Positions 13,302 to 33,234 of a stretch of DNA of 64,000 nt are shown one piece after another. The position numbers and the translations under genes are program-made. Source of the DNA: a virus. Each line of letters opens with the position of its first letter. Position 1 is the stretch's first letter. The DNA lies in the IMG/VR virus record IMGVR_UViG_3300025809_002164, positions 82,037 to 146,036 of that record; one strand, given 5' to 3'. Under the pieces are notes generated by a model. The model had not been told where the DNA came from. It did not search any database and saw only the letters and a program-made list of their open reading frames with translations.

Positions 13302-16052
13302 TTAAAGATTTTGAATAAATACTACATCACATTCTTGATTTCCTGGAGTTAAGCTTACCGAAATACTAGGAGTAATAGTAGAAGTAACCGTAATGCTAGG
13401 AGTAATAGTAGGAGTAGTCGTAATGCTGGGAGTAATAGTAGGAGTAGCCGTAATAGTAGGAGTGGTCGTAATGCTAGGAGTAATCGTACTCGTTGGAGTA
13501 ATCGAAATAGTACAGGTAACACTAGGAGTGATTGTAATACTAGGAGTAATAGTGGGAGTGATAGTAGGAGTAATCGTGCTCGTCGGAGTAATCGTACTAG
13601 TCGGAGTAATCGTGCTCGTCGCAGTAATCGTACTCGTTGGAGTAATCGTACTCGTTGGAGTAATCGTACTCGTTGGAGTAATCGTGCTCGTCGGAGTAAT
13701 CGTGCTCGTCGGAGTAATCGTGCTCGTCGGAGTAATCGTGCTCGTCGGAGTAATCGTGCTCGTCGGAGTAATTGTGCTGGTTGGAGTTGGCGACAGCCCT
13801 GGGGTAACGCTCTGTGTAGCAGTGGGAGTAGGGCTTTTATCTTGAGTGCTAGTTGGAGTAATTGTGCTTGTCGGAGTAATCGTGCTAGTTGGAGTAATTG
13901 TGCTAGTCGGAGTAATCGTGCTAGTCGGAGTAATTGTGCTTGTCGGAGTAATCGTGCTAGTCGGAGTAATCGTGCTAGTCGGAGTAATCGTACTAGTCGG
14001 AGTGATCGTGCTAGTTGGAGTAATCGTACTAGTCGGAGTAATCGTACTAGTTGGAGTAATCGTACTAGTTGGAGTAATCGTACTAGTTGGAGTAATCGTA
14101 CTAGTCGGAGTAATCGTGCTAGTCGGAGTAACTGTCGGAGTAATCGTACTAGTCGTAGTAACTGTTGGAGTAATTGTCGGTGTTGGGGTGGAACTCAGGC
14201 TAGGTATCGGCGGAGCACAAACATCCACTCCACACATAGCCCCACTCCAATAATTAGGCAATGTATTGTAATTCCATATTCTATCATAGTCTATCTCGTA
14301 ATTTCCTTGGCCGTCCGCATTTTTAACAGGATATCTATTTAAATAAATTTTATAACAACCAGTAGGTATTCCAGTGTAACCACCCCCATCTAATTCAACT
14401 TGTTGCTGGTCGTATAAATAAGATTTATAATTGCCACTAACAGCAGGCCAGTTATTATCTATGTATTTAACATTTCCTTCCATACCCTCATACATACCCT
14501 TAACTTCATCATGCTGATAATTAAACAAATAATAAACACCCTCCACTGAGTCTCCTACAATATTATTAAGAAATAAGTTTTCACTTGCAGGAACAGTATC
14601 ATGAGCGTTTGGGTTTACAGCATAATTTAAATATTGAAAAATTCCTCTAATACTGTAATCATAAAATTCATTAGGGTATGTATAAAAAACGTCTCTACCA
14701 TCACAACTGATTAATTTCCACACAGTAGACGACATCAATTTTCTATCCGAGTAATATCTACCAGCCTTAGTTACATCCACTCCATCGTTAGTCCCAAAGC
14801 TTTGTTTCACTCCAGCCGAAACAACATCAGGCTCCGGTATATTGTATCGCAAAGATATAAGCTCTGTAAACCCATCTCCTATAGCACTAACCAGGTCAGC
14901 TATCTCTTTAGACCTAAAGTCTATTGTTCCTACACTAACAAAAGATGTTGTCCCTTTTTGTATAGCTAGGGCTATTATATTTTTAACTATAGTTATAACT
15001 CTAGGGTTTTTTATTGTAACAATATTATGGTGCAAATATGGTATATCTTTTTGAAAATCAAACCGAGTAGCTATTCCATTATTTCCGGTGGCATAAGTGC
15101 TAGTTATCTCGCTAGAACCAAAATCTATCGGGTCATATGTCGCATGAATTTCAGGTGAAATATTAATCGATACATCATTGATTTTATCCACATATGCATT
15201 AATCTCTCCATTAACTTTTGTGAAAATTCCACTAGCATAAATCTTATTTTTTTCTAGCATTTCAGATGCAGAGTCTGATGTTTTATATAAAAAATTATCT
15301 CTATGAAGCTCAAGCTCTGGAGCATGAGAGGGAACATTAAATGACGAAATTACTTCGGCTGGAGAATATATGGCATTAACTTTCTTAATTAAAGGCATAT
15401 ATGGAAGATCGGCATTATCCAGAGGAAATGCTTTATTTAAACTCCTAGAAGTATCAATATCATATATATAGCAATTATTTAAAATATTATAAAAAATATT
15501 TGAATTATTATCGTCTATAGAAAAATCATATACGTTTTGATCTGCATTAACTGCAGGGATCCCGACAGACTTAACTTTACCGGAAATCAACCTTTTAATC
15601 TTAGATGCAGATAGCCCACTATATATAGTGTTGTTATAAGTAAAACTAACAGGAAAAAGTTCATTGTCTGACCTGCTTTTTCTGTAATCACTACGAAACT
15701 TAGTAAAGCTCCGAACCACCTCGCTCTTTTCTAGAAAAGCCTGAAGAATTGCTTGCCTATCTTGTTCCAGTATTTGCGACCATTTAATGGTAGTCCCACC
15801 GGCCAAATTTATATCTTGGTTAAATGCATCGGTAACAAAATTAGCCTTATCCACCCTATCTTCATACTCTTCGTGAAGATGGACTCCTATGGAAAAGAAT
15901 TTTAAATCAAAATCATTAACATCCCCATCCCCGTCGACATCCCATACATTTAAATTTCCTTTTTTTTCGATGGCTGCATTAAGTTGATTTACAGGTATGC
16001 CTTGATTTACTAAATTAAAAGAAGTTGAAAATTTTATTCGCTTTATTGGCAT
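13302..16052 (-). CDS. mucin-like virion protein: N-terminal dockerin/EF-hand loop, C-terminal PTS array
   Basis: WDVDGDGDVNDFD; about 280 aa of TPTSTI-type repeats. Confidence 0.75.
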   Translation of the reverse strand: MPIKRIKFSTSFNLVNQGIPVNQLNAAIEKKGNLNVWDVDGDGDVNDFDLKFFSIGVHLHEEYEDRVDKANFVTDAFNQDINLAGGTTIKWSQILEQDRQAILQAFLEKSEVVRSFTKFRSDYRKSRSDNELFPVSFTYNNTIYSGLSASKIKRLISGKVKSVGIPAVNADQNVYDFSIDDNNSNIFYNILNNCYIYDIDTSRSLNKAFPLDNADLPYMPLIKKVNAIYSPAEVISSFNVPSHAPELELHRDNFLYKTSDSASEMLEKNKIYASGIFTKVNGEINAYVDKINDVSINISPEIHATYDPIDFGSSEITSTYATGNNGIATRFDFQKDIPYLHHNIVTIKNPRVITIVKNIIALAIQKGTTSFVSVGTIDFRSKEIADLVSAIGDGFTELISLRYNIPEPDVVSAGVKQSFGTNDGVDVTKAGRYYSDRKLMSSTVWKLISCDGRDVFYTYPNEFYDYSIRGIFQYLNYAVNPNAHDTVPASENLFLNNIVGDSVEGVYYLFNYQHDEVKGMYEGMEGNVKYIDNNWPAVSGNYKSYLYDQQQVELDGGGYTGIPTGCYKIYLNRYPVKNADGQGNYEIDYDRIWNYNTLPNYWSGAMCGVDVCAPPIPSLSSTPTPTITPTVTTTSTITPTVTPTSTITPTSTITPTSTITPTSTITPTSTITPTSTITPTSTITPTSTITPTSTITPTSTITPTSTITPTSTITPTSTITPTSTITPTSTITPTSTQDKSPTPTATQSVTPGLSPTPTSTITPTSTITPTSTITPTSTITPTSTITPTSTITPTSTITPTSTITPTSTITATSTITPTSTITPTSTITPTITPTITPSITITPSVTCTISITPTSTITPSITTTPTITATPTITPSITTTPTITPSITVTSTITPSISVSLTPGNQECDVVFIQNL
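13355..14190 (-). repeat. 18-bp coding tandem repeat (TPTSTI)n
   Basis: Plus-strand unit GTCGGAGTAATCGT(A/G)CT(A/C), in two blocks, degenerate at the ends. Confidence 0.95.
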
Positions 16053-16069
16053 TTTATTTTAATGTTAAA

Positions 16070-18253
16070 TTATTTCTCATTCCATCTTATAGGAGTCATA
16101 TTAAAATCCATGAAGGGAAAGTTATCATATACTGTGTATTCTTCACCTCTATACGAGAAAGTTGAATCAAAAGCATAAAGTTTTCTCATGAAAGGAGGAT
16201 TAAATACCTGACTTTTAATGCTTCCGTCAGTGACGGAAGATGGAATTACGTTGGTTATTTTTTCTCCAGGAATAGGGCTAGTCCAATTTTTCAAAAGGGT
16301 GTTAGTGTCGGAGACACTATTGCTAGAACTCATGTAGAGCCCCCACTCAATAAATTGATGAACCCACGGATATCCGTCCGACTCTTTAAACATTATACTC
16401 CATAGCTTTCTTCGTATTACATTCCCGTCACCATTTATGCCCATGTATAAACCTTTTCCACACCTCGAATAGTTCTGCATCATTATATCGCAAACCCCGA
16501 CAGCCTCTTCTCCGCCAAGCTCCATTATTTCTCTTAAGTTAGAATCTTTCTTGTCTAGGAAATCTAAAAGCCCCGAGTCAGCAAAAAAACTACTCATCAT
16601 AAAGCCCAACGAGATGTCCCCGCCCCCTATGCTTTCAATACTTGCAGCTATATCCTTAAATTGCCTCCAAAAACCCTCAGATGTAAGATTCCCGAAGTAT
16701 CTATAGTCCTGACCCAATTCCTTTCCATTGATTAAATCATAATGGGGCATGCCAGGATTATAATGCTCTCCAAAATCAAGGAAATCTCCGAATTCATTTT
16801 GTACTGGTAAAAAATCATTAATATTTAAGTTATTAATAAAGTTATAATTGCCATGAAGCTTACTTGAATTAATTTTTTGCTCAGAATATAAATCATAAAC
16901 CTCTTGCTTTGGCCTCCAATTTTTAAGAAATCCATTATCACTATCAATTCCAGGATATGTTGCATATAAAGGCTTGTTATTAAATGTCAAATTGAGCGAG
17001 TCAAAATCTTCAAAAGAGTGGTCTCCAGCTTCAGGAAATTGATTCATAGCATAAGCTTCATTCTTGTACCATTCTGGATCCCCGAAATCTAAACCTTTTT
17101 CCGTCATCGCTGTCGAAATATATGCAACTTCAGATCCAGCCTCATAGCATCTAGCTAAATCTCCAACCTTAGACGAAATAAAATTTAATCCATCAGAAGT
17201 AATTGACGAGTTCGCCCCGAAAGTGAAACCTCCGCTATTAGCAAAACCCGACTGAACCCATTTTCCTAGATACTTATAAATAAAAACCTCACCAGTATTT
17301 CCATTGGATATTAAAAGAGAAGCCCCACTATGATCTAATGACAAATTGGCTCCAAATTTACTATTTCTAGTCGGCCTATTATCTAATATTGCCCCCCCAA
17401 TTTGCTGCCATCTATTGAACATTTTGTTGAGCCTGAATACTTTTACATTATTCCTAGATGGCTCATAATTACCAAATGCAAATGTCAATCCATCGCCACT
17501 TATAGATACAGAGCTTTTTGAATTAACCATGTCCCAAGATTGAACCTCTAAGTTGAGTCCACCTAGAGAGTTAACCCATTGGCTTCCATTAAAATCGCAC
17601 AAAGTGACTTCAGAAATTAGCCCCAACTTAGAAGATCCTAGTGAAACTATTCGGCTTCCCTCGTCGTTCATTGAAACAGATCTTCCCAATTTAGAATTTT
17701 TTTGCTTGCCCTCTATTCTTGACCCCATCCTTTGCCATACATTTAATGAATTATTAAACTCATAAACCTCAACAAAGCCTGCAGATTCCTGAAAAATCTC
17801 TCCAGAAGATTCTAAATATTCGTAATCGTTAATCTTTTCCTGATAATCCCCAACCCTATCGTCATAATAAAGAGGAATCCTAAACTCTGGGTCTGAGCTT
17901 GAAAAATCATACCCACCCATTGGAGCTCCTATAACTATAGTTTCTCCACTTTCATTCATATCTATAGATCGACCAAATTCATCTAACTTATGATCGCCAG
18001 TCATTACTTGCCCAATCATATTCCATATTCCACTGTCCTCCCTAAAGACTGCCACACTATTTGTGTCAAAGCTTACTGCCAAAATATCGCCAGCTCCATT
18101 CATTACTACTGTTTCGGGATTTTTAATTGGTATTCTGTAAGAACTAATCCAATCGCTTTCTTCTAATTTGAAAACAGAAACTCCAGATTCATCCGAGCAT
18201 GCGGATATTGTTGCTGAATTATTAACTGTTACTGATTTTGCGAAATTTTTCAT
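16070..18253 (-). CDS. FG-GAP beta-propeller virion/adhesin protein
   Basis: Repeated FGRSIDMNESGETIVIGAP, LGRSVSMNDEG, SVSISGDG, FGANLSLDHSG and W..(I/M)G blades. Confidence 0.75.
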   Translation of the reverse strand: MKNFAKSVTVNNSATISACSDESGVSVFKLEESDWISSYRIPIKNPETVVMNGAGDILAVSFDTNSVAVFREDSGIWNMIGQVMTGDHKLDEFGRSIDMNESGETIVIGAPMGGYDFSSSDPEFRIPLYYDDRVGDYQEKINDYEYLESSGEIFQESAGFVEVYEFNNSLNVWQRMGSRIEGKQKNSKLGRSVSMNDEGSRIVSLGSSKLGLISEVTLCDFNGSQWVNSLGGLNLEVQSWDMVNSKSSVSISGDGLTFAFGNYEPSRNNVKVFRLNKMFNRWQQIGGAILDNRPTRNSKFGANLSLDHSGASLLISNGNTGEVFIYKYLGKWVQSGFANSGGFTFGANSSITSDGLNFISSKVGDLARCYEAGSEVAYISTAMTEKGLDFGDPEWYKNEAYAMNQFPEAGDHSFEDFDSLNLTFNNKPLYATYPGIDSDNGFLKNWRPKQEVYDLYSEQKINSSKLHGNYNFINNLNINDFLPVQNEFGDFLDFGEHYNPGMPHYDLINGKELGQDYRYFGNLTSEGFWRQFKDIAASIESIGGGDISLGFMMSSFFADSGLLDFLDKKDSNLREIMELGGEEAVGVCDIMMQNYSRCGKGLYMGINGDGNVIRRKLWSIMFKESDGYPWVHQFIEWGLYMSSSNSVSDTNTLLKNWTSPIPGEKITNVIPSSVTDGSIKSQVFNPPFMRKLYAFDSTFSYRGEEYTVYDNFPFMDFNMTPIRWNEK

Positions 18254-18257
18254 ATTA

Positions 18258-20453
18258 TTAAGATAACTGGTCGGCAGTCACGCCATATGCATAATTCTCA
18301 TTCCCATCATTATCTAAATATGATATATTGTATGTGCATAAGCTTGAATCGTCATATTCAAAAGTTGAAGCAATCGTGTAATCGCTCGCTCCTCCGCCTG
18401 GACTGTACATCATAGGCCAAGTGCCATCGGGATCCCATGTACACGAACCTCCTCCGCCAGGAGAACTATCATTACATGTTCCATTTTCATCCATAGAAAC
18501 ACATTCCTGCCTTAAAAATAAAGTCCAGTAATCCTCATAACTATTCCCCATCGCATTAAATTTTGTTTGATATTTACAATCGCTAGTTATACCTTTTATT
18601 GTTATTGAGGTACCTTCATAGAAAAAATCTGCATCAATTCCGTAGCTACAATCATTTCCACCATAATCACCCAAAATTCCTGCCTGCTTTGGCCCACTGT
18701 ATGTTCCAGTGTAATGAGTCGCATAGACATCTTTACCCATGTAATATCTTGGATTACTACCAGCATCCCAAGATCCTAATTGAGTTTGATTAACATCTTG
18801 CTCTTCCCCCTGATCGTTCGTATATATTAAATTCCCAAATTGATTTATCGTTCCTAAGTATGCAGTTATTTCTTGTCCGGAAGTTATAACTCCTAAATTA
18901 AAATCAACAAAAATCTCATCTCCCTTATGAATTGGATACACAGGGCCGGCATTCTGATGCGTCATCGACGACTCCAGCAATCCAATGTATGTGTTATTAG
19001 TATTTAATACATCTTCCACCGTCCATGAGCATGTTGCTGGATCCTCTGCCAATAGTTTAAATAACCTCTCGAATTGATGATCCGAGTCAGCAGCATCGTA
19101 GTACCAAACAAGATCATTAGTACTATATTGAGTCTGGCATCCAGGAGTAGCCGACGGAGTTATTGAAATTGTTGGAGTAATCGTACTCGTCGGAGTGGTT
19201 GTAGGTGTTACAGTTCTGGTCAAACTTACAGTTGGAGTGACACTACTAGTAGGAGTAGCAGTTAATCCTACCGTCACTGAGGGAGTAATTGTTGGTGTAT
19301 TCGTAGGAGTAATCGTGCTGGTAGGAGTGATCGTACTAGTCGGAGTAATCGTACTAGTTGGAGTAACCGTTGATGTTGGAGTTATAGTAGGGGTTGGAGT
19401 AGAGCTCTGACTTGGGTAAACAATATCCCCACCCAGCTGAAACATTCTTACAACATTCTGCTTAACAAACCCGTCTGGAGCTTGAGTAGAAGTCAAACTC
19501 GGAGTTAATGTCGGAGTAGGACTACTACTAGCCCCCGGAGTCGAAGTTACAGACACAGTAGGAGTTGGAGTTTTAAAAGGGGTAGTAGTTGGGGTCAGTG
19601 TAGGGGTAAAGCTAGGAGAAGCAGAGACACTAGCAGTAACACTTTGAGTTATCAATGGAGGATCTACAGCTGGAACCCTGACTTCAGCTATGTCATAATC
19701 TCTTACCGAAAAACTGCCATCGCTTGCCTCTGAGCCTTTTTTTATAAAAAAATATTGATCCTGGTAGAAAGATATATCAAAAAAATCTTCAACCTCATAC
19801 CTGCTTACATTAAAATTAGAACTATCTGAGACAAGAAAATATTCAGGATTTTCTGGAAATTCTTCACTGGAAAAGAAATATGAAAATGGAGGTTGATCAG
19901 CTACAGAAACTCTCCATCCATCAGAATAAGGATACCCCAACCCTTCGTCTTCGAATTCCTCCAAAGATAAAGCCCTAACAACTTCAATATTTCCTGTAAT
20001 CTTATAACTTAAATCAGACACTCCTATATTAAATATATCAGATTGGTGCAATTTATCATTAATCAAAACCTCGAATTCATATTCTTCAAATTCAGAATTC
20101 CAATTATACGGCAAATATATATCCTTATTAAATAAGTTTGAACCCTGGGCAAAAACTTCAGTATTCCCAAACACTCCTGCAGCTTGTTCAGCTGCAAAAT
20201 ATATCTTAAACATTTCATATCGATCACTATAACCGATAGCCCAGTTGTCAAATTCAAAATATTCACTAGTTGAATTAGTTCTGGATACATATACATACTC
20301 AGAGTCTCCTAAATCCCCTATCCATGGAAAACTGCTTCTTTTTTGTATTTCATACAGCCCAACAGGAGAAACATAATCTCGATTGCCGAAACTTACCGAT
20401 TGAAATCTTTTTTCCGAAAAAGCTAAATACAACTGACCCGCGCTTAGCTCCAT
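18258..20453 (-). CDS. acidic mucin-like virion protein with central PTS stalk
   Basis: Two PTS blocks between an acidic aromatic N-domain and Cys-containing C-terminal modules. Confidence 0.7.
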   Translation of the reverse strand: MELSAGQLYLAFSEKRFQSVSFGNRDYVSPVGLYEIQKRSSFPWIGDLGDSEYVYVSRTNSTSEYFEFDNWAIGYSDRYEMFKIYFAAEQAAGVFGNTEVFAQGSNLFNKDIYLPYNWNSEFEEYEFEVLINDKLHQSDIFNIGVSDLSYKITGNIEVVRALSLEEFEDEGLGYPYSDGWRVSVADQPPFSYFFSSEEFPENPEYFLVSDSSNFNVSRYEVEDFFDISFYQDQYFFIKKGSEASDGSFSVRDYDIAEVRVPAVDPPLITQSVTASVSASPSFTPTLTPTTTPFKTPTPTVSVTSTPGASSSPTPTLTPSLTSTQAPDGFVKQNVVRMFQLGGDIVYPSQSSTPTPTITPTSTVTPTSTITPTSTITPTSTITPTNTPTITPSVTVGLTATPTSSVTPTVSLTRTVTPTTTPTSTITPTISITPSATPGCQTQYSTNDLVWYYDAADSDHQFERLFKLLAEDPATCSWTVEDVLNTNNTYIGLLESSMTHQNAGPVYPIHKGDEIFVDFNLGVITSGQEITAYLGTINQFGNLIYTNDQGEEQDVNQTQLGSWDAGSNPRYYMGKDVYATHYTGTYSGPKQAGILGDYGGNDCSYGIDADFFYEGTSITIKGITSDCKYQTKFNAMGNSYEDYWTLFLRQECVSMDENGTCNDSSPGGGGSCTWDPDGTWPMMYSPGGGASDYTIASTFEYDDSSLCTYNISYLDNDGNENYAYGVTADQLS
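19145..19645 (-). repeat. degenerate PTS-coding repeat with a few canonical 18-bp units
   Basis: GGAGTAATCGTACTAGT units near 19305-19365. Confidence 0.85.
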
Positions 20454-22387
20454 TATTTTTTCCAGCTAAGTTGAAAGGTTAATGATTTTAATTCAAAAGC
20501 CTGATCGATGTCAGTTGGATCTTCTGCTAATGTCTTAACTATTAAAGTGTCATCTATATGCAGGGCATTCCCAGAATCAGTCAAAGGGAATGCCGGCCTA
20601 ATATCAAAAGGCTCAACAAAGGTATTAGTTGGAGCTGAAGGTTGGTTAATTAAATCCACCATCGAGTTCGTACCAGCAGCAGTTAATCCATAATTCTCGA
20701 ACCTATCAAGATCAAATTCATCAACTCCATCTTGATGTCTAAATTTAAACCCTGATCCATTAAATCCAAATTCATAATTTTTTGCACTATTGAAATCAGC
20801 GATCACATTAAAAAATTCAGGGGTTGCAGTATTAATTGGAAAGTTTCCAGATTTTATATTCCAATATTTTAATGGATTACCCATGTTAATCGGACCGCTA
20901 TTCTCGACTATTGATCTATAGTGATTATGAATTTCTTCATCCACGTATTGGCCCGTCATGAATCCATAATACCCAGTAAGATTATTAAGGGAAGATTTAT
21001 CTCCCGATTTATACCATTGATATACAAAAACTCCAGTAGAAAAATCTTGTGGCGGAAGTGTGCTAGAGATGAATGTTGAATATTCTTGAGCAGTGCCTGT
21101 TACTATACCGCTAAAAGACATTGGTGAATATGTCCCATTCTTAAACAAGCCATCAGCAAATTCGCTAGCTTGATAACATCCAGTATAAGTATCCCCTATG
21201 TTTGTACCCGGAAATTGCATTTCCGCAAAAGCATTTCCACCTAAGTGTCTATAAAATACATTAAAATCTGAATCTATAATGCTACTGTCAAAACAACCGG
21301 TTGGTCTATTATATCTTATTCCATGTTTTTTACCAATGTCTTCAGAATAATCAAAATCGGTATCAAGTCCATCCGTGCCATAATAAAAATTATCCATTGG
21401 AGTTGTATAGCTGGTGGTAAATTGATTAATTAAATCCTTGAAGTGTTTTGACCCAGTAACTGAATACTCCTTACTAAGGTCGCTTCCAGCTTCGCCCATT
21501 AGTATTGGCATATTAACTACATCTATTGATCTAGGAGACAAGGAAACTTTATAAGTTGCAGGAATATTTACATCATATCCATCTAGAAAATAATCAGTAA
21601 AATTAAATCCAGTTCCACTAGGCATGCATTCTACAATCTGCCCTGGAGTCACAGGAAGCCCCGTACATGTAGCATAAATCCAAGAAGAGGTTTTGCCGTC
21701 ATACTCGTTCCCTAAATTTAAAAAATTTGCAGTTTCATAAATATCCCCCCTTATTCTAAATGTTATATCCTGAGTGCCGCAGTCAAAGTCGCAATTATTA
21801 TAAAATTTTATTGTGTTTATTTTATTTGCTATTTTAACTTCGTCGTATAAATTAGTATAACTAAAATCAGGCTCGGTTACAAATCCCCCTGTAGCTGCAA
21901 AACTTTTAAGCTCCTGCCTTTCGTATAAGTCTGACTCTACTACATATTTAAAATAAGCTATTTCAGCACCTCGGTCCTCAAACGATGCATGTATGCCTGA
22001 CTGCATGTCAATTTTTCTATCAAAGCAGGAAATTTGTGTTGGCTTAAAATTAATGCTTGGGTCATTCTGATTCAGAAATCCAGACTCTATGGCGATTTCC
22101 TGCCATCCAGTTGAGTATGTCTGTATAGTGATTTTAGACTCGTGAAAAGAAGGGGTGCCATCAACATATTTAAAGCCGCCTACAATAAAATCAATATCTT
22201 TACCACATACACAACTATTACAATCCAAGCAATCGTCAAAAGATCCATATATAGTCCTAGTAGCAATTACTCCGTCTGGAATAATAACACTTTCTGCTAT
22301 TTTCTTATAACAATATCCACTAACCTGAACGAAATCCTTACCTGCTGCATCAGATATAGGGACATATAATGAATTATTTATAGCCAT
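20453..22387 (-). CDS. putative virion protein, Cys-rich N-terminus, S/T-G rich
   Basis: GYCYKK...FDDCLDCNSCVC; GTGTA motif 9 nt upstream. Confidence 0.7.
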   Translation of the reverse strand: MAINNSLYVPISDAAGKDFVQVSGYCYKKIAESVIIPDGVIATRTIYGSFDDCLDCNSCVCGKDIDFIVGGFKYVDGTPSFHESKITIQTYSTGWQEIAIESGFLNQNDPSINFKPTQISCFDRKIDMQSGIHASFEDRGAEIAYFKYVVESDLYERQELKSFAATGGFVTEPDFSYTNLYDEVKIANKINTIKFYNNCDFDCGTQDITFRIRGDIYETANFLNLGNEYDGKTSSWIYATCTGLPVTPGQIVECMPSGTGFNFTDYFLDGYDVNIPATYKVSLSPRSIDVVNMPILMGEAGSDLSKEYSVTGSKHFKDLINQFTTSYTTPMDNFYYGTDGLDTDFDYSEDIGKKHGIRYNRPTGCFDSSIIDSDFNVFYRHLGGNAFAEMQFPGTNIGDTYTGCYQASEFADGLFKNGTYSPMSFSGIVTGTAQEYSTFISSTLPPQDFSTGVFVYQWYKSGDKSSLNNLTGYYGFMTGQYVDEEIHNHYRSIVENSGPINMGNPLKYWNIKSGNFPINTATPEFFNVIADFNSAKNYEFGFNGSGFKFRHQDGVDEFDLDRFENYGLTAAGTNSMVDLINQPSAPTNTFVEPFDIRPAFPLTDSGNALHIDDTLIVKTLAEDPTDIDQAFELKSLTFQLSWKK

Positions 22388-22396
22388 ATTTATATA

Positions 22397-22401
22397 TACA
22401 C
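22397..22401 (-). promoter_or_regulatory. GTGTA late-promoter motif
   Basis: GTGTA-N9-ATG(22387). Confidence 0.65.
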
Positions 22402-22421
22402 TTTTTATATTTAGTTTTCAT

Positions 22422-25400
22422 TTAAAAAATTCCAGTTTGCCCGTAAGTAAAAATGCCGCCAGTGTAAGATAGTCCGGTAGAGAAATGGTTCAACTCCCAA
22501 CTAGGCTGCGGGAGTTGCTGCATTCTTTGATAGCCTTTCGCAGAATTCAAAACTCCAGTTAGATCTATTGGTATGCATATCTCATAAATTGATACAGATT
22601 CTGGGCATTTTTCATAAATAGATACTTGAGCTCCAGGAGTTCTTGATGGAGTAATCGTACTAGTCGGAGTAATCGTACTGGTCGGAGTAATCGTACTAGT
22701 CGGAGTAATCGTACTGGTCGGAGTAATCGTACTGGTCGGAGTAATCGTACTAGTCGGAGTAATCGTACTAGTCGGAGTAATCGTACTGGTCGGAGTAATC
22801 GTACTAGTCGGAGTAATCGTACTAGTCGGAGTAATCGTACTGGTCGGAGTAATCGTACTGGTCGGAGTAATCGTACTGGTCGGAGTAATCGTACTAGTCG
22901 GAGTAATCGTACTGGTCGGAGTAATCGTACTGGTCGGAGTAATCGTGCTAGTTGGAGTACGGCTAGCTCCTGGAGTCATAGTATTCGTAGGAGTAATCGT
23001 ACTAGTAGGAGTCAATGTCACACTGGGAGTAACAGTAACTGTTGGAGTTCTGCTTGAAGGAGGACAATACGGAGGTTGATCATTATCAACGATTAAAACA
23101 TTGTATGGATTTTTATATAAAATCCTAGATGAAACACAATTTATTTGACCTATATTATATAATGTAATATTAAAAAATTCAGACTCTTCATGAATAAGAT
23201 CTTCTTTTGTGTTTATTGCAATATACTGAACATTTTCTCCGCCTGCAAAATTCAGAACCCCTGTGGTTCCAAAAAAGTCTATACCCTGATCTGCAGAAAA
23301 TAGGCTAGACGATGTTTTATATCCTACGGAAAAAGGCCCCGAGTAATCTTTGTCAGAGTAAGTTAATTCCCTATAAACCCTGACTCCAGTAGCTTGACCC
23401 TCAACGACATAAGTTGATGGATATTGAAATCTAATAGAGAGTTCTTTTTGAATACAAGTCGGAGTCGGAGTAATCGTATTAGTCGGAGTAATCGTGTTAG
23501 TCGGAGTAATCGTATTGCTCGGAGTAATCGTGCTTGTTGGGGTAATCGTACTGGTCGGAGTAATCGTATTGCTCGGAGTAATCGTGCTTGTTGGGGTAAT
23601 CGTACTGGTCGGAGTAATCGTACTAGTCGGAGTAATCGTACTAGTCGGAGTAATTGTACTAGTCGGAGTAATCGTACTGGTCGGAGTAATCGTACTAGTC
23701 GGAGTAATCGTACTAGTCGGAGTAATCGTACTAGTCGGAGTAATCGTACTAGTCGGAGTAATCGTACTAGTCGGAGTAATCGTACTAGTCGGAGTAATCG
23801 TACTAGTTGGAGTAATCGTACTAGTCGGAGTAATCGTACTAGTCGGAGTAATCGTACTAGTTGGAGTAATCGTGCTTGTTGGAGTAATCGTACTAGTCGG
23901 AGTAATCGTACTAGTCGGAGTAATCGTGCTTGTTGGAGTAATCGTACTAGTCGGAGTAATCGTACTAGTCGGAGTAATCGTACTGGTCGGAGTAATCGTA
24001 CTGGTCGGAGTAATCGTACTAGTTGGAGTAATCGTACTAGTCGGAGTAATCGTGCTAGTCAAGGTCGGAGTAATCGTACTAGTCGGAGTAATCGTGCTAG
24101 TCGGAGTAATCGTGCTAGTCAAGGTCGGAGTAATCGTACTAGTCGGAGTAATCGTGCTAGTCGGAGTCGCTGTCTGACTGCTTGTTGGAGTCGGAGTTGG
24201 GGTTCTTACTGCGATATTAATAACTCCACACTTAGATTTCCTATTAGTATTCAAGTTATCTATAAAAACAAAAGCATTGTAATTACCTAAGCTACTATAA
24301 GTATGACTTACTGTCGTATAATATCCGACTTCATTATCCCATGATAATTTTTGATTGCTCAGAATAGTACCATCTCCAAAGTTAACACTATACCTCAAAT
24401 CATTACTTACATTAAATTGATCTTCAGCCATCAAACCTAAAGAAAAAGTAGAAGCTCCATACTCAACCCTAGAACCAAAAGGAATACAGCAACTTCCCGA
24501 TAGTAAAGATGTCGATGGCGTTATAGTTGGAGTAATCGTACTGGTCGGAGTAATCGTACTAGTTGGAGTAATTGTACTGGTCGCAGTTGGAGTAATCGTA
24601 CTGGTTGGAGTAATCGTACTAGTCGTAGTCGGAGTACTGGTCGCAGTCGGAGTAATCGTACTGGTCGGAGTAATCGTACTAGTCGGAGTAATCGTACTGG
24701 TCGGAGTATTTGTCGGAGTAATCGTACTGGTCGGAGTATTTGTCGGAGTAATCGTACTAGTCGGAGTATTTGTTGGAGTAATCGTACTAGTAATCGAAAT
24801 AGTCGGAGTATTCGTCGGAGTAATCGTACTAGTCGGAGTATTCGTCGGAGTAATCGTACTGGTCGGAGTATTTGTCGGAGTAATCGTACTGGTCGGAGTA
24901 TTTGTCGGAGTAATCGTGCTAGTCGGAGTATTTGTAGGAGTAATCGTACTAGTAATCGAAATAGTCGGAGTATTCGTCGGAGTAATCGAAATAGTCGGAG
25001 TATTCGTCGGAGTAATCGTACTAGTAATCGAAATAGTCGGAGTAATCGTGCTAGTCGGAGTATTTGTAGGAGTAATCGTAGGGGTGGCTGTACTACTCGG
25101 ACTCGGAGGCGGAACTTCGCCCTGCACGATATTCATTGGAGCGGGAGAACCCGCCATCGAAATCGGACTAGAAGCATAAGTTAAAGTAAGGCTCGGAGTA
25201 AATACTGAAGATTTCTGAATTGTCCCGTTAGTAATCTGCTCAGACCTAGAAAATCCTCCATCTCCTACTAGCCTGACTTGTATCAACTTGTCTCCTGGGT
25301 TTAATGCATCGTCATGAAGAGAAATCTCAAAAATTTTTCTTCTTCCAAGATTATTTAATGCCGCAACATTCGTAGTTGGAGGATTCATGTGAGTTCCACG

Positions 25401-25949
25401 AAACGTAGTCGCTACTGCGGATCCTTTGTATGTATTAAAATGATTCTCGTTTGTAAAAATTGGATCCTGACCATCCAGCTTTTCATTGTAACCCATGTAA
25501 TAATAGATTCCAACTGGAGACATCTCCACAATATTTGAAATGGCAAACAATTTAGTGTATATCTTTGTTACCAAACCAGCCCGAGTTTCACCCGCTGCAA
25601 TATTAATATTTGCTATATTAAAATCGAAGGTGTGGGATGTTGGGGGGTTAGTAACACTTCCAGAAAACAACCCATTGAAGCCGCGAGCTGTGCTGCCATT
25701 CTGGAGCTTATAGTAACCCAAACTTGTCGCAGTCCTTCTCTCTGAAGGCCAGGATCGAACACCTCCAACTATTTTTTTTGATAATTGCTGAAGGGCCGGT
25801 AAAAACCCAACAATACTGAGCTCTCCAGAAAAAACTCCCCCTATTGCCAAGCTAGCGGCAGCAGGCAGCCTGAATAAATATTTCTTATCATAAGAACTGG
25901 AGCCGTTGTAGATATGTTTATTCCATCTATCTGTATGAACTACCGACAT
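22422..25949 (-). CDS. mucin-like virion protein: N-domain, PTS, PKD, PTS, Calx-beta, PTS (start moved to ATG 25949)
   Basis: [17 protein letters not shown] (PKD); [32 protein letters not shown] (Calx-beta); ATG lies 1 nt after the upstream stop. Confidence 0.85.
22648..23050 (-). repeat. 18-bp tandem repeat (TPTSTI)n
   Basis: About 17 near-perfect units GTCGGAGTAATCGTACT(A/G). Confidence 0.95.
23458..24200 (-). repeat. longest 18-bp tandem repeat array (about 39 units)
   Basis: Near-perfect units with TPTLTSTI and TPSNTI variants. Confidence 0.95.
24515..25110 (-). repeat. PTS repeat with higher-order 30-bp unit ([10 protein letters not shown])n
   Basis: GTCGGAGTATTTGTCGGAGTAATCGTACTG repeated. 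Confidence 0.9.
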
Positions 25950-25950
25950 A

Positions 25951-28170
25951 CTAACTAGGCTCAACTATAAATACCGAGTAAGGATTAACTCCTAGGATCT
26001 GAACGTTAGAACTTACACTAACTGGGTTAGATAAGTAAATATTAAAAAACTCATCGCTCTCCCTAGGGTCATTATCTCCAGGAATCGGCAAGCCAGTAAC
26101 TGTTATTTCTTTGAAAAGTTCACCCTTATTGAAAGATAGTGTGCCTGCCCCAGAAGCATAGTCATATTCATACCCAGCAATCGCAAAAACACCGGAGCCG
26201 GAAGCACTATTTCCCGCATCCCTAGTGGAGTAATCAACAGAAAATGCTTCTAAAGATTGATCGCTCCTGAACGAATCTCTTACAACTCTTAAAGTCGCAA
26301 CTGTTCCTTCTACTAAATAAGTGGAAGAATATTGAAACCTTACATACTGATTATTTATCCGGCTCAAAGTCGGAGTAATCGTAGTAGTCGGAGTAATCGT
26401 AGTAGTCGGAGTAATCGTACTAGTCGGAGTAATCGTGCTAGTTGGAGTAATCGTACTAGTTGGAGTAATTGTGCTGGTCGCAGTTGGAGTGATCGTACTA
26501 GTCGGAGTAATCGTACTAGTCGGAGTAATCGTACTAGTTGGAGTAATCGTACTAGTCGGAGTAATCGTACTGGTCGGAGTAATCGTACTGGTTGGAGTGC
26601 GGCTAGCTCCTGGAGTCATAGTATTCGTAGGAGTAATCGTACTAGTTGGAGTGATCGTACTAGTCGGAGTAATCGTACTGGTTGGAGTAATCGTACTGGT
26701 CGGAGTAATCGTACTAGTCGGAGTAATCGTACTGGTCGGAGTAATCGTACTGGTCGGAGTAATCGTACTGGTTGGAGTAATTGTGCTAGTAGTAGTAACA
26801 GTCGGAGTAACCGTGCTGCTAATCGTAATGCTCGGAGTAATAGTCGGAGTGATTGTACTGGTTGGAGTAATAGTTGGGGTTAAGCTACTCGTAGGAGTAG
26901 GGCTTAAAGCTATTACCGGAGGACAGAAAAGAGCTTCGTCAAAATCTGAAGATGACGGATTACCTGGGCACGGCTTTGGGTCGTTAGATCCTGGAGCAGA
27001 GGCTGAGTTGAGGCAACCCCCACTCACCAGAAAACCATTAGTGGTTGTTAACGTAAAATCAAAGCCAACATCAACACTAGCAGCTCCGCCAATCTGCATG
27101 TTCGTATTTTTGCTTTTCAATACAGCATTATCAATAACATAAGTCATTAACGTTCTTCTCGAGGTATCGTCTCCCTGACAAAAGGAAGAGGATGGCGGAC
27201 AATTATCCTTACAATCTATTGTTATCTTGTAAGGCTTATCGTAACCTAATATTTTATTCAAATTACCCGTCTCTAAATTTCTTTTAATTATATTCAGATT
27301 TAAAGATCCCCTAGCGGGCAAACTTAATTTCCTATCATACGGATACATAGATCCAAACCCATACAGATTTCTACGATTTAAGTCAACACCAATATCAAAG
27401 CCTACAGCATTAGCATTATCCTTAGATACTACAGATCCTCCGATATTTAATTCTTCAATTTTAATATCTATATAATTAGGAAGCAAGGCTGGAGCGGAAT
27501 ACTCATCAGCGAAGTCCTGAGGTCCAAATTGATATTTATGACGATCCTTGTACTCTCCGTCGTATAAATGAATTGCAGGTATATAATTATTGGAGTTATA
27601 TTCATCCAGCTTAATATTTGAAGCTTGATAATCCATTGAGACCACAGCTGGCGAGCCAACTTGCACCGATAAATTATAACTTGTAGCGAATGCATTGCCT
27701 ACACCCATGACATAATGCCCAATAAAGTCAGACTCTTTCAGTAAATAATTAGCTTGCTTACCTACATCACTCCTAAGGACCAGGAAAAAGTTTTTATCCC
27801 CAAAGTGTCTAGATATAAAGCTATTTTCCGCAATACCTCCGTTAGGGACAACATTAAAATTTAAAAGGTATTCATTAAGCCCACAAGTAGGTAGGTAGCT
27901 GAAACTAAAATTAACAGGAACCGGCTCTATGTTTACATCAATATTACTTCCAGGGCTAGGAACTGCATTGATTACATTAATTCTCCGAGTAAGCAAGTCT
28001 TCATGACCTATCTGCTTAATCTCTTCTCTATTTATATCAAAACCATAAGAAACGGACTGAACTTTTGTTATTTGTCTAAGAAATGATTGGTCGACATCAA
28101 AATGCGGCCTGAATGCTGGAGCTGGACCAACAAATAAAGCTGCATAATCAGACCTAAAAAAATTCCTCAT
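25951..28170 (-). CDS. tail tube paralogue fused to a PTS stalk and Calx-beta domain
   Basis: First ~390 aa align by eye with the 540-aa protein (ALF.sP, VQS..Y.F.INR, FSY, NFF, GN, IPAI, GNL, AVL.S); then TPTSTI array; [29 protein letters not shown]. Confidence 0.8.
26368..26900 (-). repeat. 18-bp tandem repeat (TPTSTI)n
   Basis: Same unit as the other arrays. Confidence 0.95.
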
Positions 28171-28183
28171 ACCTTAATAAACA

Positions 28184-28214
28184 ATTACACCACAACCGGA
28201 GATTGTGGTGTAAT
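28184..28214 (-). terminator. perfect 12-bp inverted repeat; probable terminator of the tail tube gene, with GTGTA in its arms
   Basis: ATTACACCACAA-ccggaga-TTGTGGTGTAAT, followed by TGTTTATT on the minus strand. Confidence 0.65.
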
Positions 28215-28253
28215 ATAATAAAATATATATACTTTATTTACATTCTTTTAAAA

Positions 28254-29876
28254 TTAAAAGTGTTTTGTGTGTTTAGCCACTTCGGAATTCCAACCTTCAG
28301 ACTCTTTTCCGGAGTAGTATCCAGATGTTCCAAGGTGTCCATATCTGAAATATTTCAGCCCGTCCCCTGTATTCTCAATAGTTGGGAAAGATTTATTCTT
28401 GCCATCAGCCCCTGTCTGGTTTTCATAGCCAGAAAAGAATACTCCAACCGCTGATTCTTCAGGGCCTCCTATTTGAGTTGAAAATGTAAGGTCTACGGTT
28501 TTATTGTCTCCTATTGATGAACTAAAGCTTTCTGAATCTAGTACGGCTTTTTTGAAATCAATCACAATAGCATCAGGTTTTGCGTTAGGATCACATACAA
28601 CACATGAAGGATTTTGAATTCTAACCTTAAGGTCGTAAGTTCCTCCGCAAATAAGATCAACTAAATTTCCATCTTTTAAATCTGCTACTAATGCATTAAC
28701 ACTCAAAGAGCAAGTTACAGGAAAATCTACTTCTTTAGCATATGCATATGTACTACCCAATCTCTGTAATGCTGATCTACCGAGAGGAGTAGATAACGAA
28801 AAGCTTTGAATGTGAGCACTACCAAAATCGGCAGGATTATTATACCCAACAGAATTTCCAGATAATTGCCTAGAAATTAATGCAGAATCTTGAAGATCTA
28901 TAGTTATATCTCCAGGCTTTAAGACGCTTTGACCTTGACCACTTTCAGTGGGGGGTAAAGTGAAGCATCTATCACAAATTAATGTGCCATCTGTTGGATC
29001 AATTGCTGGTATATTTTTGTAATCTGTACCCACGTCAGATTTTAAATTCATTCCTTCTACGGTAACTGAAGCTGTTGGAAAGGATCCAACACTTCCTTCT
29101 ATAGAATAATCAGTAACATAACCGTTTCCAAGACTAATAGATGTTTTCTCTGCCTCGGTTACCATTTGGTCACCCTTGAGAGCATCTCTGCCTTCTGGCA
29201 CAGTTAATATAAAAAAGTTGTTTCCAAATTCATTTTGAGATCGAGTCATCATTCCTGACAAGCTCTGAAATGAGCCATCAGTTACCATCCCCATTAATCT
29301 TTCATTTTCTCCATCCGTCAAGTAGTAAGAAAAATCCAGACTTACAGTTGGAGCCTCAAGGACCACAGAGTCGATTCTTGCTAAATGTCCAAACTGATTG
29401 ACATCTTGCCTATTTATAGTAAAGCTATAATTAGCGCTTTGAACTCTTTTAAGTTGCTCAACAGTTGTTCCCCATGAACCTTTAACATTGACGTCTCCAT
29501 AGTGCTTCATGTATTTCAAGCCATTACCCGTAACACCACTTAGCATACCAAGGTCAGCGAGTACTGGATGCCCCACCGCTTTGTAACCAGTATTCCCTGT
29601 AAGATTAAAGCCTGTAAAAGTTCCAGTACAGTCGTAAGTTTTATATTTAAAGTCAGTCCAAAGACCTCCTCCAGTTGTTCCGGATCCCACACAAGCATTA
29701 AAACCAAACGTGGAGTCATTCACACCACTTCCGGTTATCATACATTCATTTATCGTTGTTGCCCCGGTTACCGACTCGGGTGGCATGTAGTAAAGATGAT
29801 GACCTGTCGTGTCTGGTGATATGAATAAAGCTTCACTTTGATAAATTACTCGATTTCTTGCTGGTAGTTTGCTCAT
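28254..29876 (-). CDS. major tail tube protein (two tube domains)
   Basis: Beta-rich; RVQSANYSFTINR..FG and HIQSFSLSTPLGR..LG mark duplicated halves; follows neck genes; own promoter and terminator. Confidence 0.7.
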   Translation of the reverse strand: MSKLPARNRVIYQSEALFISPDTTGHHLYYMPPESVTGATTINECMITGSGVNDSTFGFNACVGSGTTGGGLWTDFKYKTYDCTGTFTGFNLTGNTGYKAVGHPVLADLGMLSGVTGNGLKYMKHYGDVNVKGSWGTTVEQLKRVQSANYSFTINRQDVNQFGHLARIDSVVLEAPTVSLDFSYYLTDGENERLMGMVTDGSFQSLSGMMTRSQNEFGNNFFILTVPEGRDALKGDQMVTEAEKTSISLGNGYVTDYSIEGSVGSFPTASVTVEGMNLKSDVGTDYKNIPAIDPTDGTLICDRCFTLPPTESGQGQSVLKPGDITIDLQDSALISRQLSGNSVGYNNPADFGSAHIQSFSLSTPLGRSALQRLGSTYAYAKEVDFPVTCSLSVNALVADLKDGNLVDLICGGTYDLKVRIQNPSCVVCDPNAKPDAIVIDFKKAVLDSESFSSSIGDNKTVDLTFSTQIGGPEESAVGVFFSGYENQTGADGKNKSFPTIENTGDGLKYFRYGHLGTSGYYSGKESEGWNSEVAKHTKHF

Positions 29877-29914
29877 TATATTATATATTTTAGTAAATTT
29901 GTAGTTGAAATTAA

Positions 29915-29941
29915 ATACACAAGAAAAATATTTTTGTGAAA
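29915..29941 (-). promoter_or_regulatory. late promoter TTTCACAAAA-N12-TGTAT (contains GTGTA)
   Basis: Identical elements and spacing at 63664-63690. Confidence 0.6.
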
Positions 29942-29942
29942 T

Positions 29943-31544
29943 TTATTCCCAAATTCCAGTAAACCTAATTTCCATTTTTGGAACACTGGAGGTTCCGTAG
30001 TTTGTGCTGACGGGGTCACTACTATAAAGGCCTACTCTTAGGTGTATGCTTTGATTATGCGCATCTTTAGTTATGGTCTTAACTTGAGTAAATGTCCCGT
30101 TATTATTTTTCTGCATCAGTCCAAAATCATATAAAAGAAAATCTGACAGTGTACATCCCGCAGGGTTTGCGAAATAATCAGGAGCAGATGTAAATTTATC
30201 ATCCGCAGCATTATCCATATTCAAGTAAGGCCACGGATCATCTGAACCTTGGTACACCCATCCGTACCCATCATCATGAGCCCCGTTACAACCTGCAGTA
30301 GATTTAATATTCATTGGATCTGCCGGTAAGATTGTAAATTTAGTTTTACCTTCAGGCCAAGCGATATTTGATTTACTCGAATTAAAGGCTGAACCTTGTG
30401 TATCTAATCCCCCATCGATTAAGGCTACGACTCCTCCTCCGCCTGCTCCAGTTAATTGTATGTAAGAATATTCAGGGTCAGCCTGACTTGGTGGTGAAGA
30501 CGTCGCTGTAGGAGTTACCGTAGCAGTCGGAGTGATAGTACTGGTAGGAGTAATAGATGAAGTAGCAGTCGGAGTGATAGTACTGGTAGGACTCACTGAA
30601 GATGTTATTGTAGCAGTCGGAGTGATAGTGCTGGTAGGAGTAATAGATGAAGTAGTAGTCGGAGTAGTAGTGGTCGTTGGAGTCGGAGTTTCACTAGCTC
30701 CAGGACTAACGCTAGCAGTCGGAGTAATCGTGCTCGTTGGAGTAATAGAGTTAGTCGGAGTTATTGTCTGAGTTATGGTCGGAGTTATTGTGCTAGTAGG
30801 AGTAATGGATGAGGTAACAGTCGGAGTTATCGTACTGGTAGGAGTCACTGAAGATGTTACTGTGGCAGTCGGAGTTATTGTGCTAGTAGGAGTAATGGAT
30901 GAGGTAACAGTCGGAGTTATCGTACTGGTAGGAGTCACTGAAGATGTTACTGTAGCCGTCGGAGTAATCGTACTGGTCGCACTCGGAGTAATCGTGCTAG
31001 TCGGAGTAATACTTGGAGTAGTCGTAATAGTCGGAGTAATACTCGGAGTAATCGTAATAGTCGGAGTAATACTTGGAGTAGTCGTAATAGTCGGAGTAAT
31101 CGTACTAGTCGGAGTAATCGAGCTGGTAGCAGTCGGGGTGATAGTGCTAGTGGGGGTAATAGTATTAGTTGGCGTAACACTTGCAGACATTAGCATTGAA
31201 GATGTCGGAGTTGGAGTCGGAGTAGTCGTGCTAGTTGGAGTAACACTAGGGTCAGGAGGGCAATTAAATTTTATCCCCGACAGCATTGGACTGATTCCAA
31301 ATACTTCTCCCTGCTCATTATAAGCGGAAACTTTATAATTATAAAGCACTGTATCACAATATTCTACTTCGTCAACCCCAGTAATAAGTATAGGGTTTCC
31401 TACTCCGGAAGGAATTAAAGTCTTAATGTGATTAAAATCTCCATAAGTAGATCCAGCGACTTCCTGCCTGTACAGCTTATAACCGTCAGCCAAGTAAGGC
31501 TCCTCGTTTTTGTGCAAAAAACTATAATATACTTTATATGCCAT
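29943..31544 (-). CDS. mucin-like virion protein: FN3-like N-domain, PTS stalk, globular tip
   Basis: GYKLYR...YNYKVSAYNEQGE; about 250 aa PTS. Confidence 0.8.
   Translation of the reverse strand: MAYKVYYSFLHKNEEPYLADGYKLYRQEVAGSTYGDFNHIKTLIPSGVGNPILITGVDEVEYCDTVLYNYKVSAYNEQGEVFGISPMLSGIKFNCPPDPSVTPTSTTTPTPTPTSSMLMSASVTPTNTITPTSTITPTATSSITPTSTITPTITTTPSITPTITITPSITPTITTTPSITPTSTITPSATSTITPTATVTSSVTPTSTITPTVTSSITPTSTITPTATVTSSVTPTSTITPTVTSSITPTSTITPTITQTITPTNSITPTSTITPTASVSPGASETPTPTTTTTPTTTSSITPTSTITPTATITSSVSPTSTITPTATSSITPTSTITPTATVTPTATSSPPSQADPEYSYIQLTGAGGGGVVALIDGGLDTQGSAFNSSKSNIAWPEGKTKFTILPADPMNIKSTAGCNGAHDDGYGWVYQGSDDPWPYLNMDNAADDKFTSAPDYFANPAGCTLSDFLLYDFGLMQKNNNGTFTQVKTITKDAHNQSIHLRVGLYSSDPVSTNYGTSSVPKMEIRFTGIWE
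30500..31250 (-). repeat. PTS-coding repeat with an internal ~84-bp duplication
   Basis: [30 protein letters not shown] occurs twice (about 30780-30960). Confidence 0.9.
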
Positions 31545-31553
31545 CTTTAATGT

Positions 31554-31558
31554 TACAC
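31554..31558 (-). promoter_or_regulatory. GTGTA late-promoter motif
   Basis: GTGTA-N9-ATG(31544). Confidence 0.65.
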
Positions 31559-31605
31559 TATTTTTTAACCTAGATAAAATATAAACCTATTTTTTATTAT
31601 AGAAG

Positions 31606-32637: not shown

Positions 32638-33233
32638 TATATTTTCTTTAAATTTATTTTTTTGATATCTATTTCAAATTGATTTATTATACTAGATATA
32701 TATTTAGTATTGCTAAATTTAGCAGACCTAATATTCTTATTTGTCTGAATTCCTTCTCCAGATCTACTAACATCTGATTCTGTGTGTAAGAATTTACCCA
32801 ATCCAGGCAGTCCAGACTCAATGCCTTTAGCCCAGCTTCTCCCTTCAGCCCAAGGAAGTGGGGTAATTTTAAATATATCAGAAGCTGAGGGATACATTAT
32901 ATAAGTTTGAGAGTCTCCATTTCTTTTAACCATGGTCGAAGTAAGTCTTATAGCATTAAAAGCAGACCTTATTGCATCTATAGGTCGATCATTTCTCTCA
33001 AAACCTATAAAGGTAAACAAATTGCCAACACCACCCAAGGTTCCAGAAGAGTTTAGAGAGTCCACTCCACTTTCAATCTCTTTAGTTACTGGGTGATTAT
33101 TAAATTCTCTCAATAAATCTTCCTTAATTTTATTAAATTCCGAATTAACTATTCTTTTTACCTCATTTATATATTCAATAGACTTACTGAAATCCGCGCC
33201 CTTCAAGGCTTGCTTTGCTCCTCCCATTCTCAT
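32637..33233 (-). CDS. putative tail completion/neck protein
   Basis: Basic 198-aa protein; synteny only. Confidence 0.45.
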   Translation of the reverse strand: MRMGGAKQALKGADFSKSIEYINEVKRIVNSEFNKIKEDLLREFNNHPVTKEIESGVDSLNSSGTLGGVGNLFTFIGFERNDRPIDAIRSAFNAIRLTSTMVKRNGDSQTYIMYPSASDIFKITPLPWAEGRSWAKGIESGLPGLGKFLHTESDVSRSGEGIQTNKNIRSAKFSNTKYISSIINQFEIDIKKINLKKI

Positions 33234-33234
33234 A

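Follow-up and report, generated by a model that had tools for sequence, protein, structure and literature searches.

A Thr/Pro-coding minisatellite homogenised over seven arrays in five virion genes of a marine phage, probably serving as a module-tolerant linker

The 146,036-bp virus record IMGVR_UViG_3300025809_002164 of IMG/VR, rated complete by CheckV, carries a family of short tandem repeats within a block of genes for large proteins, and we analysed this family in the 64,000 nt that correspond to bases 82037-146036 of the record (hereafter the window, whose own coordinates are used throughout). The repeats lie on the minus strand, within a block of twelve large open reading frames (ORFs; 11185-33822) whose transcription is divergent; from 34 kb onward a lambda-like tail module follows on the plus strand, including a 2984-aa ORF at 35950-44904, and Pfam matches in the window comprise Phage_min_tail, Phage_tail_L, NlpC/P60 and Phage-tail_3. 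Allowing up to two mismatches, the 18-nt unit ACTCCGACTAGTACGATT occurs 117 times in the window, on the minus strand only and between 13482 and 31115, compared with 0 copies in shuffled sequence. With at most one mismatch, 92 copies are found genome-wide, every one of them in the window at 13.6-31.1 kb. The copies make up seven in-frame arrays (A1-A7) in five minus-strand ORFs, all in one common codon phase that reads TPTSTI, which confirms the seven same-orientation arrays in five genes over about 18 kb that a preliminary description of this DNA had reported.

All seven arrays are on the minus strand. A1 (13338-14225; 296 aa) lies in a 916-aa ORF and holds 27 TPTSTI units, among them the private variant runs EEEEE and FFF, whereas A2 (19131-19427; 99 aa) in a 731-aa ORF has just four canonical units. 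An 1180-aa ORF (g1180) contains three arrays: A3 (22617-23066; 150 aa, 18 units) with a 12-residue insert near its start, A4 (23457-24224; 256 aa, 32 units) with the longest perfect run (110 nt), and A5 (24492-25121; 210 aa), whose 13 units are interleaved with 10-residue units and which has a 132-nt higher-order repeat. A6 (26353-26925; 191 aa, 18 units) lies in a 739-aa ORF (g739, the tube gene) and has the same 12-residue insert as A3. The most diverged array is A7 (30471-31250; 260 aa) in a 533-aa ORF, with only 10 TPTSTI units of mixed spelling and with higher-order repeats of 42, 60 and 90 nt. An eighth Pro/Thr (PT) stretch, A2b (19485-19652), falls outside the ACTCCGACTAGTACGATT family. 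Plus-strand ORFs within the arrays (13393-14342, 23424-24290, 26332-27142 and 30775-31323, also 23494-24177) encode SNRTSR or VGVIVL repeats and were set aside as mirror-frame artefacts rather than genes.

The edges of the arrays have features of their own. Four arrays begin directly after a C(P/A)P motif (CAPP, CPP, CPP, CPP), and a cysteine occurs within about 12 residues after five of them (TPGNQEC, TPGCQ, …YEKC, TPTPTC, SGSCC); these cysteines are kept in relatives and may mark disulfide-stabilised domain borders. Downstream of a J-like gene on the plus strand, the C-terminal tail of a 956-aa ORF (58557-58793) has a 14-residue motif in common with the segment right after A3 (22422-22640, minus strand), at 79% identity over 52 nt with mostly silent differences; this resembles a shared linker end of older date that lies on the opposite strand.

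The preliminary description had also stated that the unit is kept even at synonymous positions, with CCG and ACG codons in an AT-rich genome, and the preference for rare codons is borne out. CCG accounts for 55% of Pro codons in the arrays versus 8.3% in non-array ORFs, ACG for 25% of Thr codons versus 7.0% (and for about 91% at codon 5 of the unit), and ATT for 87% of Ile codons versus 39%. The 122 TPTSTI units come in 26 DNA spellings, yet 36 have the canonical, commonest one and the four commonest together cover 80. Given the codon usage of the genome, the canonical spelling has a computed probability of about 6e-5; the repeat units therefore have a common origin. In the 956-aa ORF the PT tail (58557-58724) is spelled with mixed codons, in agreement with the earlier remark that the tail at 58.6 kb uses other codons.

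Comparison of the arrays with each other shows physical copying of DNA. Inter-array identity is 84-92% over 370-600 nt; the longest exact runs that A3 has in common with A6 and with A4 measure 86 nt each, and the longest for A4 with A6 measures 80 nt. A3 and A6, which belong to different genes, have the non-repeat insert and neighbouring units in common at 47/48 nt, and about 96% identity over about 110 nt, whereas the Calx-beta domains adjoining these two arrays show only 35% protein identity. The closest relative (G005, see below) is without this insert, which therefore arose and was copied after the lineages had split. A B spelling, with ACC as codon 3, alternates with the canonical spelling in A3-A6 but does not occur in A1, so that exchange is stronger among near neighbours. 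Within arrays, private variants stand in tandem (the two runs of A1, and the six identical units AAAAAA of A4), and higher-order units of 30-132 nt are duplicated, a pattern that slippage or unequal crossover leaves behind.

For comparison across genomes we used five IMG/VR contigs whose tube proteins are 62-73% identical to the one encoded here, with 16-34 kb rebuilt for four of them (G001, G003, G004 and G005). A near-identical second genome was not found, and neither IMG/VR nor the JGI contigs contain an exact 32-mer taken from the Calx region. Gene order is conserved in the four related phages and PT arrays occupy orthologous positions, but each genome has a repeat flavour that is common to its own genes: TPTSTI here, TPTQTI in G005, TQTQTQ in G003 and G001, and TPTISV in G004. 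The sharing of 15-mers is 0.05-0.43 among the arrays of this genome versus 0.00-0.13 between orthologous arrays here and in G005. The exact runs, the A3/A6 insert and the genome-specific flavours together bear out the earlier claim that one repeat has been homogenised across genes.

Apart from this genome, only the two g1180-like arrays of G005 have high CCG and ACG usage, whereas the PT linkers of the three other relatives have 3-17% CCG in all but one array; this argues for rare codons that hitchhiked with one founder unit and against a general need for them in PT linkers. The tube-gene array of G005 is degenerate; in the lineage of the window, the g1180-type gene was probably the source from which the unit reached the other linkers, the alternative being decay in G005. 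These data also bear on selection at the level of codons without DNA exchange, in which rare CCG and ACG would pace translation of the linkers, for example for co-translational modification. Such selection would match the regular spacing of the rare codons, two of six in each unit, and the same spelling in G005 despite saturated synonymous divergence elsewhere; we nevertheless consider it quite unlikely, because equivalent linkers in G003, G004 and G001 use ordinary codons and because the common non-repeat insert and the multi-unit variant haplotypes between arrays require physical copying.

The proteins that contain the arrays (all on the minus strand) combine the linkers with folded or conserved domains. 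The 916-aa virion protein (13302-16052) consists of a 609-aa N-domain, the C-terminal array A1 and an 11-residue C-terminal peptide (…ECDVVFIQNL), and all seven of its database homologues (7/7, 31-35% identity) likewise have the N-domain, a PT tail and a short conserved, Cys-containing hydrophobic peptide at the C-terminus. Peptides after the PT tail in this family read ECDVVFIQNL (here, 13302-13337), GCVFIHVEDL and NCAVEFITEI (homologues P0030-P0032); the peptide could be a docking strand, in which case the PT array would be a tether to another virion protein. The 731-aa protein (18258-20453) comprises an N-domain, A2b, a short spacer, A2 and a 290-aa C-domain. In the 1180-aa protein (22422-25964), an orphan N-domain (residues 1-281) is followed by A5, a PKD-like domain, A4, a Calx-beta domain, A3 and a conserved 64-aa C-terminus; Pfam scores are 32.3 bits for Calx-beta (above cut-off) and 22.3 bits for PKD (just below cut-off). 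For the orphan N-domain (25122-25964), a search of 1.84 billion representative proteins gave two weak matches and, at 99% identity, a single fragment of 98 aa; Pfam had no match for this domain, and neither IMG/VR nor the JGI contigs hold a relative of it.

The 739-aa ORF (25951-28170) has a 415-residue N-terminal part, A6 and a C-terminal Calx-beta domain, the latter scoring 26.5 bits, slightly under the Pfam cut-off of 27, and this layout is repeated in 26 homologues. An AlphaFold2 model of residues 1-415 built with 20 homologues (pLDDT 68.5, pTM 0.74) has a fused double tail-tube fold, for which Foldseek returned the P74-26 tail tube (8ed0_A, E 3.6e-11), and T5 pb6 (7qg9_A, 9iny_A and 5ngj_A), with probability 1.00 and TM scores of 0.45-0.56. 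On the strength of this model, the ORF is a major tail tube protein of the T5 pb6/P74-26 type that carries a Calx-beta domain on a stalk of about 190 residues. Its context is a siphovirus tail module, but it is encoded on the opposite strand to the plus-strand tail genes and divergently transcribed. A 540-aa tube-domain paralogue (28254-29876) lacks a PT array and stands outside the repeat family (BLASTP versus the g739 N-domain, 27% identity, E 6e-21), so that 25951-29876 holds two paralogous double-fold tube-like genes; G004 (L014, 802-4162) has two 540-type copies and a tube gene. The last of the array proteins (533 aa; 29943-31544) has a conserved 98-aa N-domain, A7 and a variable 175-aa C-domain.

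Pfam, PHROGs and PDB sequence searches gave no match for the 916-aa N-domain, both 731-aa domains, the 533-aa domains or the orphan N-domain. A 644-aa ORF had no match in the same three collections and a 704-aa ORF none in Pfam or PHROGs; matches to PHROG 15511 and 5353 were discarded because they are confined to a low-complexity stretch. Blastn against INPHARED phages found no match, and a search with a stretch of the window located the phage in 20 marine metagenome runs from 16 studies. Because the arrays adjoin folded domains of the 739-, 1180- and 916-aa ORFs, they are linkers between folded modules of virion, largely tail, proteins; from their composition and from known PT linkers we infer that they form extended tethers, which would function as stalks. 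Glycosyltransferase genes occur in the window (GT2-like, 1257-2111; a DUF2827 pair, 59203-61370; GT25/GT34, 61357-63648), given which glycosylation of the virion or its stalks is plausible. Regarding recombination functions, a RecA-family recombinase is encoded outside the window (G000:C1:58299-58982, minus strand; PF00154, 63 bits, 380-aa ORF), RecT and ERF were not found in the phage, and the 146-kb genome has no match to a reverse transcriptase (RVT_1), which a diversity-generating retroelement would need.

The relatives differ from the phage studied here, and from each other, by whole modules at the PT linkers. The g1180-type gene begins a few residues before the PKD-like domain in G003, G004 and G005, and only in the window are the 281-residue N-domain and A5 fused ahead of it. 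A linker between Calx-beta and the C-terminus, at the A3 site, is present here and in G005 but not in G003 and G004. The tube protein of G001 (1653 aa) reads tube-PT-Calx-PT-propeller-PT-Calx, its propeller being related to the N-terminal half of a stand-alone 727-aa ORF in the phage studied here (E 1e-9), and the G001 homologue of the 533-aa ORF has an additional domain between two PT arrays. Homologues of the tube protein in databases have from one to four Calx-beta modules, with PT linkers between them. These architectures fit linkers that would act as permissive in-frame joints for modules, and because all arrays are in one phase, recombination inside them preserves the frame, which makes the linkers tolerant junctions for the gain, loss and movement of modules. 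The module changes themselves may have come about through recombination inside the arrays.

The preliminary description had envisaged an in-frame domain-shuffling platform that joins the anchor of one gene to the tip of another. The single codon phase and the whole-module differences at the linkers of relatives speak only indirectly for such a platform, and no recombinant junction was observed; likewise, the suggested comparison of anchors and tips across sister genomes revealed modules that had been added, lost or moved at linkers but did not establish a swapped tip. The candidate for the latter, the C-domain of the 533-aa protein, shows a weak likeness to C-domains of relatives (E 4.5e-6 in G001, 0.01 in G005).

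PT linkers as joints between modules appear to be common in marine phage virion proteins. Downstream of its tube gene, G001 (IMGVR_UViG_3300046163_000090; L011/L096) has a 5331-aa ORF (oriented coordinates 17688-33683) with many PT linkers between Calx-beta, PKD-like and unknown modules, and the contigs L099 and L100 (IMGVR_UViG_3300036399_000964 and IMGVR_UViG_3300042429_000698) encode a protein of >1000 aa in which Cys-rich modules are parted by TPTNT-type linkers.

Taken together, we favour the explanation that the arrays are in-frame minisatellites encoding Thr/Pro tethers, which evolve in concert via DNA exchange between genes and serve as module-tolerant junctions, and we would put its probability at roughly 70%. 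The arrays would encode extended Thr/Pro-rich tethers between folded virion modules of a long-tailed marine siphovirus, with a Calx-beta domain hanging from each tail tube subunit on its stalk of about 190 residues. One founder 18-nt unit, rare codons included, would have been amplified through slippage or unequal crossover and would then have been carried, by gene conversion or unequal recombination, into the linkers of adjacent genes on the same strand, leading to concerted evolution.

Several points weigh against this explanation; they concern the modules, the assembly, the populations and the closest relative. The module differences could have other origins, and PT linkers may just be tolerated wherever two domains meet. 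In addition, a crossover between direct arrays in one genome would delete the tube gene or other structural genes, so that most such events should be lethal. Exact copy numbers and lengths of the arrays in a metagenome assembly are uncertain, although the arrays themselves are probably not an assembly artefact. An origin of the arrays, or of the similarity between them, in a collapsed or chimeric short-read assembly would be in line with the metagenomic source of the record, the general difficulty of assembling repeats and the breaking of Logan contigs at arrays. We regard it as very improbable, since exact repeats in the region are at most 110 nt long, none reaching 120 nt, so that reads of 150-250 nt can bridge them. 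Moreover, long ORFs stay open through all seven arrays with conserved domains on either side, relatives have arrays at matching positions, and the flanks are 99.9-100% identical in contigs of four independent studies that extend into the arrays.

The latter contigs come from a within-population check in which Logan contigs of four metagenome studies were placed over 14230-22640. Their flanks are 99.9-100% identical to the window, they end at A2, and neither the flanks nor A2 showed an indel; the array interiors are not spanned. Apparent joints of contigs at A2 were rejected as chimaeras, because the free ends there correspond to A5-like units or to sequence that flanks A7, A1 or A6, which indicates cross-mapping.

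These contigs bear on array length, for which the preliminary description had used the term contingency locus. A contingency locus is defined by repeats that shift the reading frame or the promoter spacing and thereby give reversible on/off expression. Here, the 18-nt unit preserves the reading frame and provides no on/off switch, all variant units (12, 18, 30 and 42 nt) are multiples of three, and the five ORFs are open through their arrays; in the frame-switching sense the term is thus not borne out. What tandem private variants and differing lengths among relatives do show, at the level of sequence comparison, is that the arrays must have expanded and contracted over evolutionary time, and in-frame length variation within populations is plausible. 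In the loci compared, orthologous arrays measure 145-215 aa for A6 and 174-297 aa for A1, differences that are found between phages at 60-75% protein identity. Lengths stay within roughly ±30% despite complete sequence turnover, a near-constancy that suggests stabilising selection on stalk length.

In a stronger version, array lengths would change at high frequency within the population and so pre-adapt the phage, in its stalk length or its adsorption, to hosts that vary. In favour of such a contingency system are perfect runs that reach six identical units or 110 nt, the tandem private variants and the length range among relatives, and there are precedents in the slippage of SD repeats in vitro (PMC3324548) and in a virophage repeat deletion that alters host range (PMC7242381). 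We consider it unlikely, however, given that the unit is incapable of the frame switch that defines the on/off mechanism, that no indel was seen where contigs of the four metagenomes could be placed (array interiors not being spanned), and that orthologous lengths appear to be under stabilising selection.

The remaining point against concerted evolution within the genome as a full account concerns G005, which holds 7 letter-perfect canonical 18-mers and whose major unit differs from the canonical one in codon 4 only. The longest exact match between the two genomes (56 nt) lies within arrays, whereas at conserved residues of seven orthologous domains four-fold sites are 38% identical versus 32% by chance and hence saturated. 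Under neutral concerted evolution the unit should have diverged as fast as silent sites do; the spelling common to both genomes therefore points to exchange between lineages or to selection on nucleotides and would be left unexplained by neutral within-genome concerted evolution, two genomes amounting to a single comparison.

Array DNA might accordingly move horizontally between co-infecting related phages, or be selected as DNA or RNA, and form a conserved homology patch for in-frame mosaic exchange, which would extend the favoured explanation rather than replace it. Besides the canonical 18-mers in G005, the 56-nt exact match inside arrays would fit such a mobile linker cassette, as unique flanks here and in G005 are only 56-67% identical in DNA with four-fold sites near chance. 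Searches with a tandem 36-mer of the unit had no hit in any other IMG/VR contig or in any of 185,579 prokaryote species genomes, and no host source was found in these collections. A looser core pattern in L099 and L100 was judged to be chance, as it consists of two TPTNTI units within mixed-codon linkers. The cassette is possible but falls short of probable: the unit is known from two genomes, identity in the unique flanks shows no clear rise or peak beside the arrays, no mechanism for nucleotide-level selection was identified, and different codons suffice in other relatives. More doubtful still is the full form of the idea, according to which related phages would share and exchange the unit as an in-frame homology cassette conserved at the nucleotide level, a coding joint for swapping virion modules such as tube decorations, propellers and orphan domains within genomes and between genomes too diverged to recombine otherwise.

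Phage mosaicism is usually mapped to gene boundaries, and to our knowledge the in-frame building of new multi-domain virion proteins is poorly documented. Throughout a widespread clade of marine phages, modules are gained and lost at linkers of this type, and the locus provides a concrete case in which in-frame module assembly can be tested. The predicted virion would have a very long tail on which each tube subunit carries a stalked domain, the stalk being estimated at about 50 nm if fully extended, and such a tail would matter for adsorption in dilute seawater and for a possible glycosylation of the virion.

The Pro/Thr linkers of cellulases and mucin-type PTS domains are extended, O-glycosylated, protease-resistant spacers between modules that are usually degenerate at the DNA level. 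The arrays resemble them in composition and presumed spacer role but are near-identical in DNA across genes. With its C-terminal beta-sandwich decoration, g739 resembles T5 pb6, the P74-26 tail tube protein and lambda gpV with its Ig-like domain, and its double fold is that of T5 pb6 and P74-26; their decorations, however, are packed on the tube, whereas Calx-beta would sit on a PT stalk of about 190 residues here and relatives have up to four modules.

The closest parallels at the DNA level come from other surface proteins. The SD repeats of staphylococcal Sdr/Clf proteins, found in several paralogous genes, have an 18-nt unit (GAY TCN GAY TCN GAY AGY), form a stalk that links a ligand-binding domain to its anchor and change in length by slippage in vitro (PMC3324548), and the SD regions are glycosylated by dedicated transferases (PMC3794999). 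Common to both systems are an 18-nt in-frame unit, a low-complexity segment between folded domains and a repeat found in several surface-protein genes, but Sdr/Clf are bacterial cell-wall adhesins with an SD peptide for which glycosylation and length change have been demonstrated, whereas TPTSTI belongs to a phage virion and is known from sequence. In the yeast FLO/ALS genes, ectopic recombination between paralogues leads to chimaeric alleles with new adhesion properties (PMC3512402). FLO/ALS also have in-frame intragenic tandem repeats, which are Ser/Thr-rich and form glycosylated stalks; they are eukaryotic, have longer units and yielded experimentally demonstrated recombinants, whereas recombinants here are inferred from comparative architectures. 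Among viruses, in-frame collagen-like (Gly-X-Y) repeats part the domains of phage receptor-binding proteins (PMC5601072), a deletion in the 27-nt repeat array of virophage ORF8 altered host range (PMC7242381), and collagen-like phage repeats have been proposed as recombination hot spots, according to a passage of the latter paper that cites Desiere et al. 1998. The arrays share with collagen-like repeats the in-frame position between domains of virion proteins, but those form a triple helix in one gene, whereas here a presumably extended PT linker is found in seven arrays homogenised over five genes. The phenomenon is thus of a known kind, represented by Sdr, FLO and collagen-like repeats; what is new is a phage Thr/Pro minisatellite homogenised over seven arrays in five virion genes, the tail tube gene among them.

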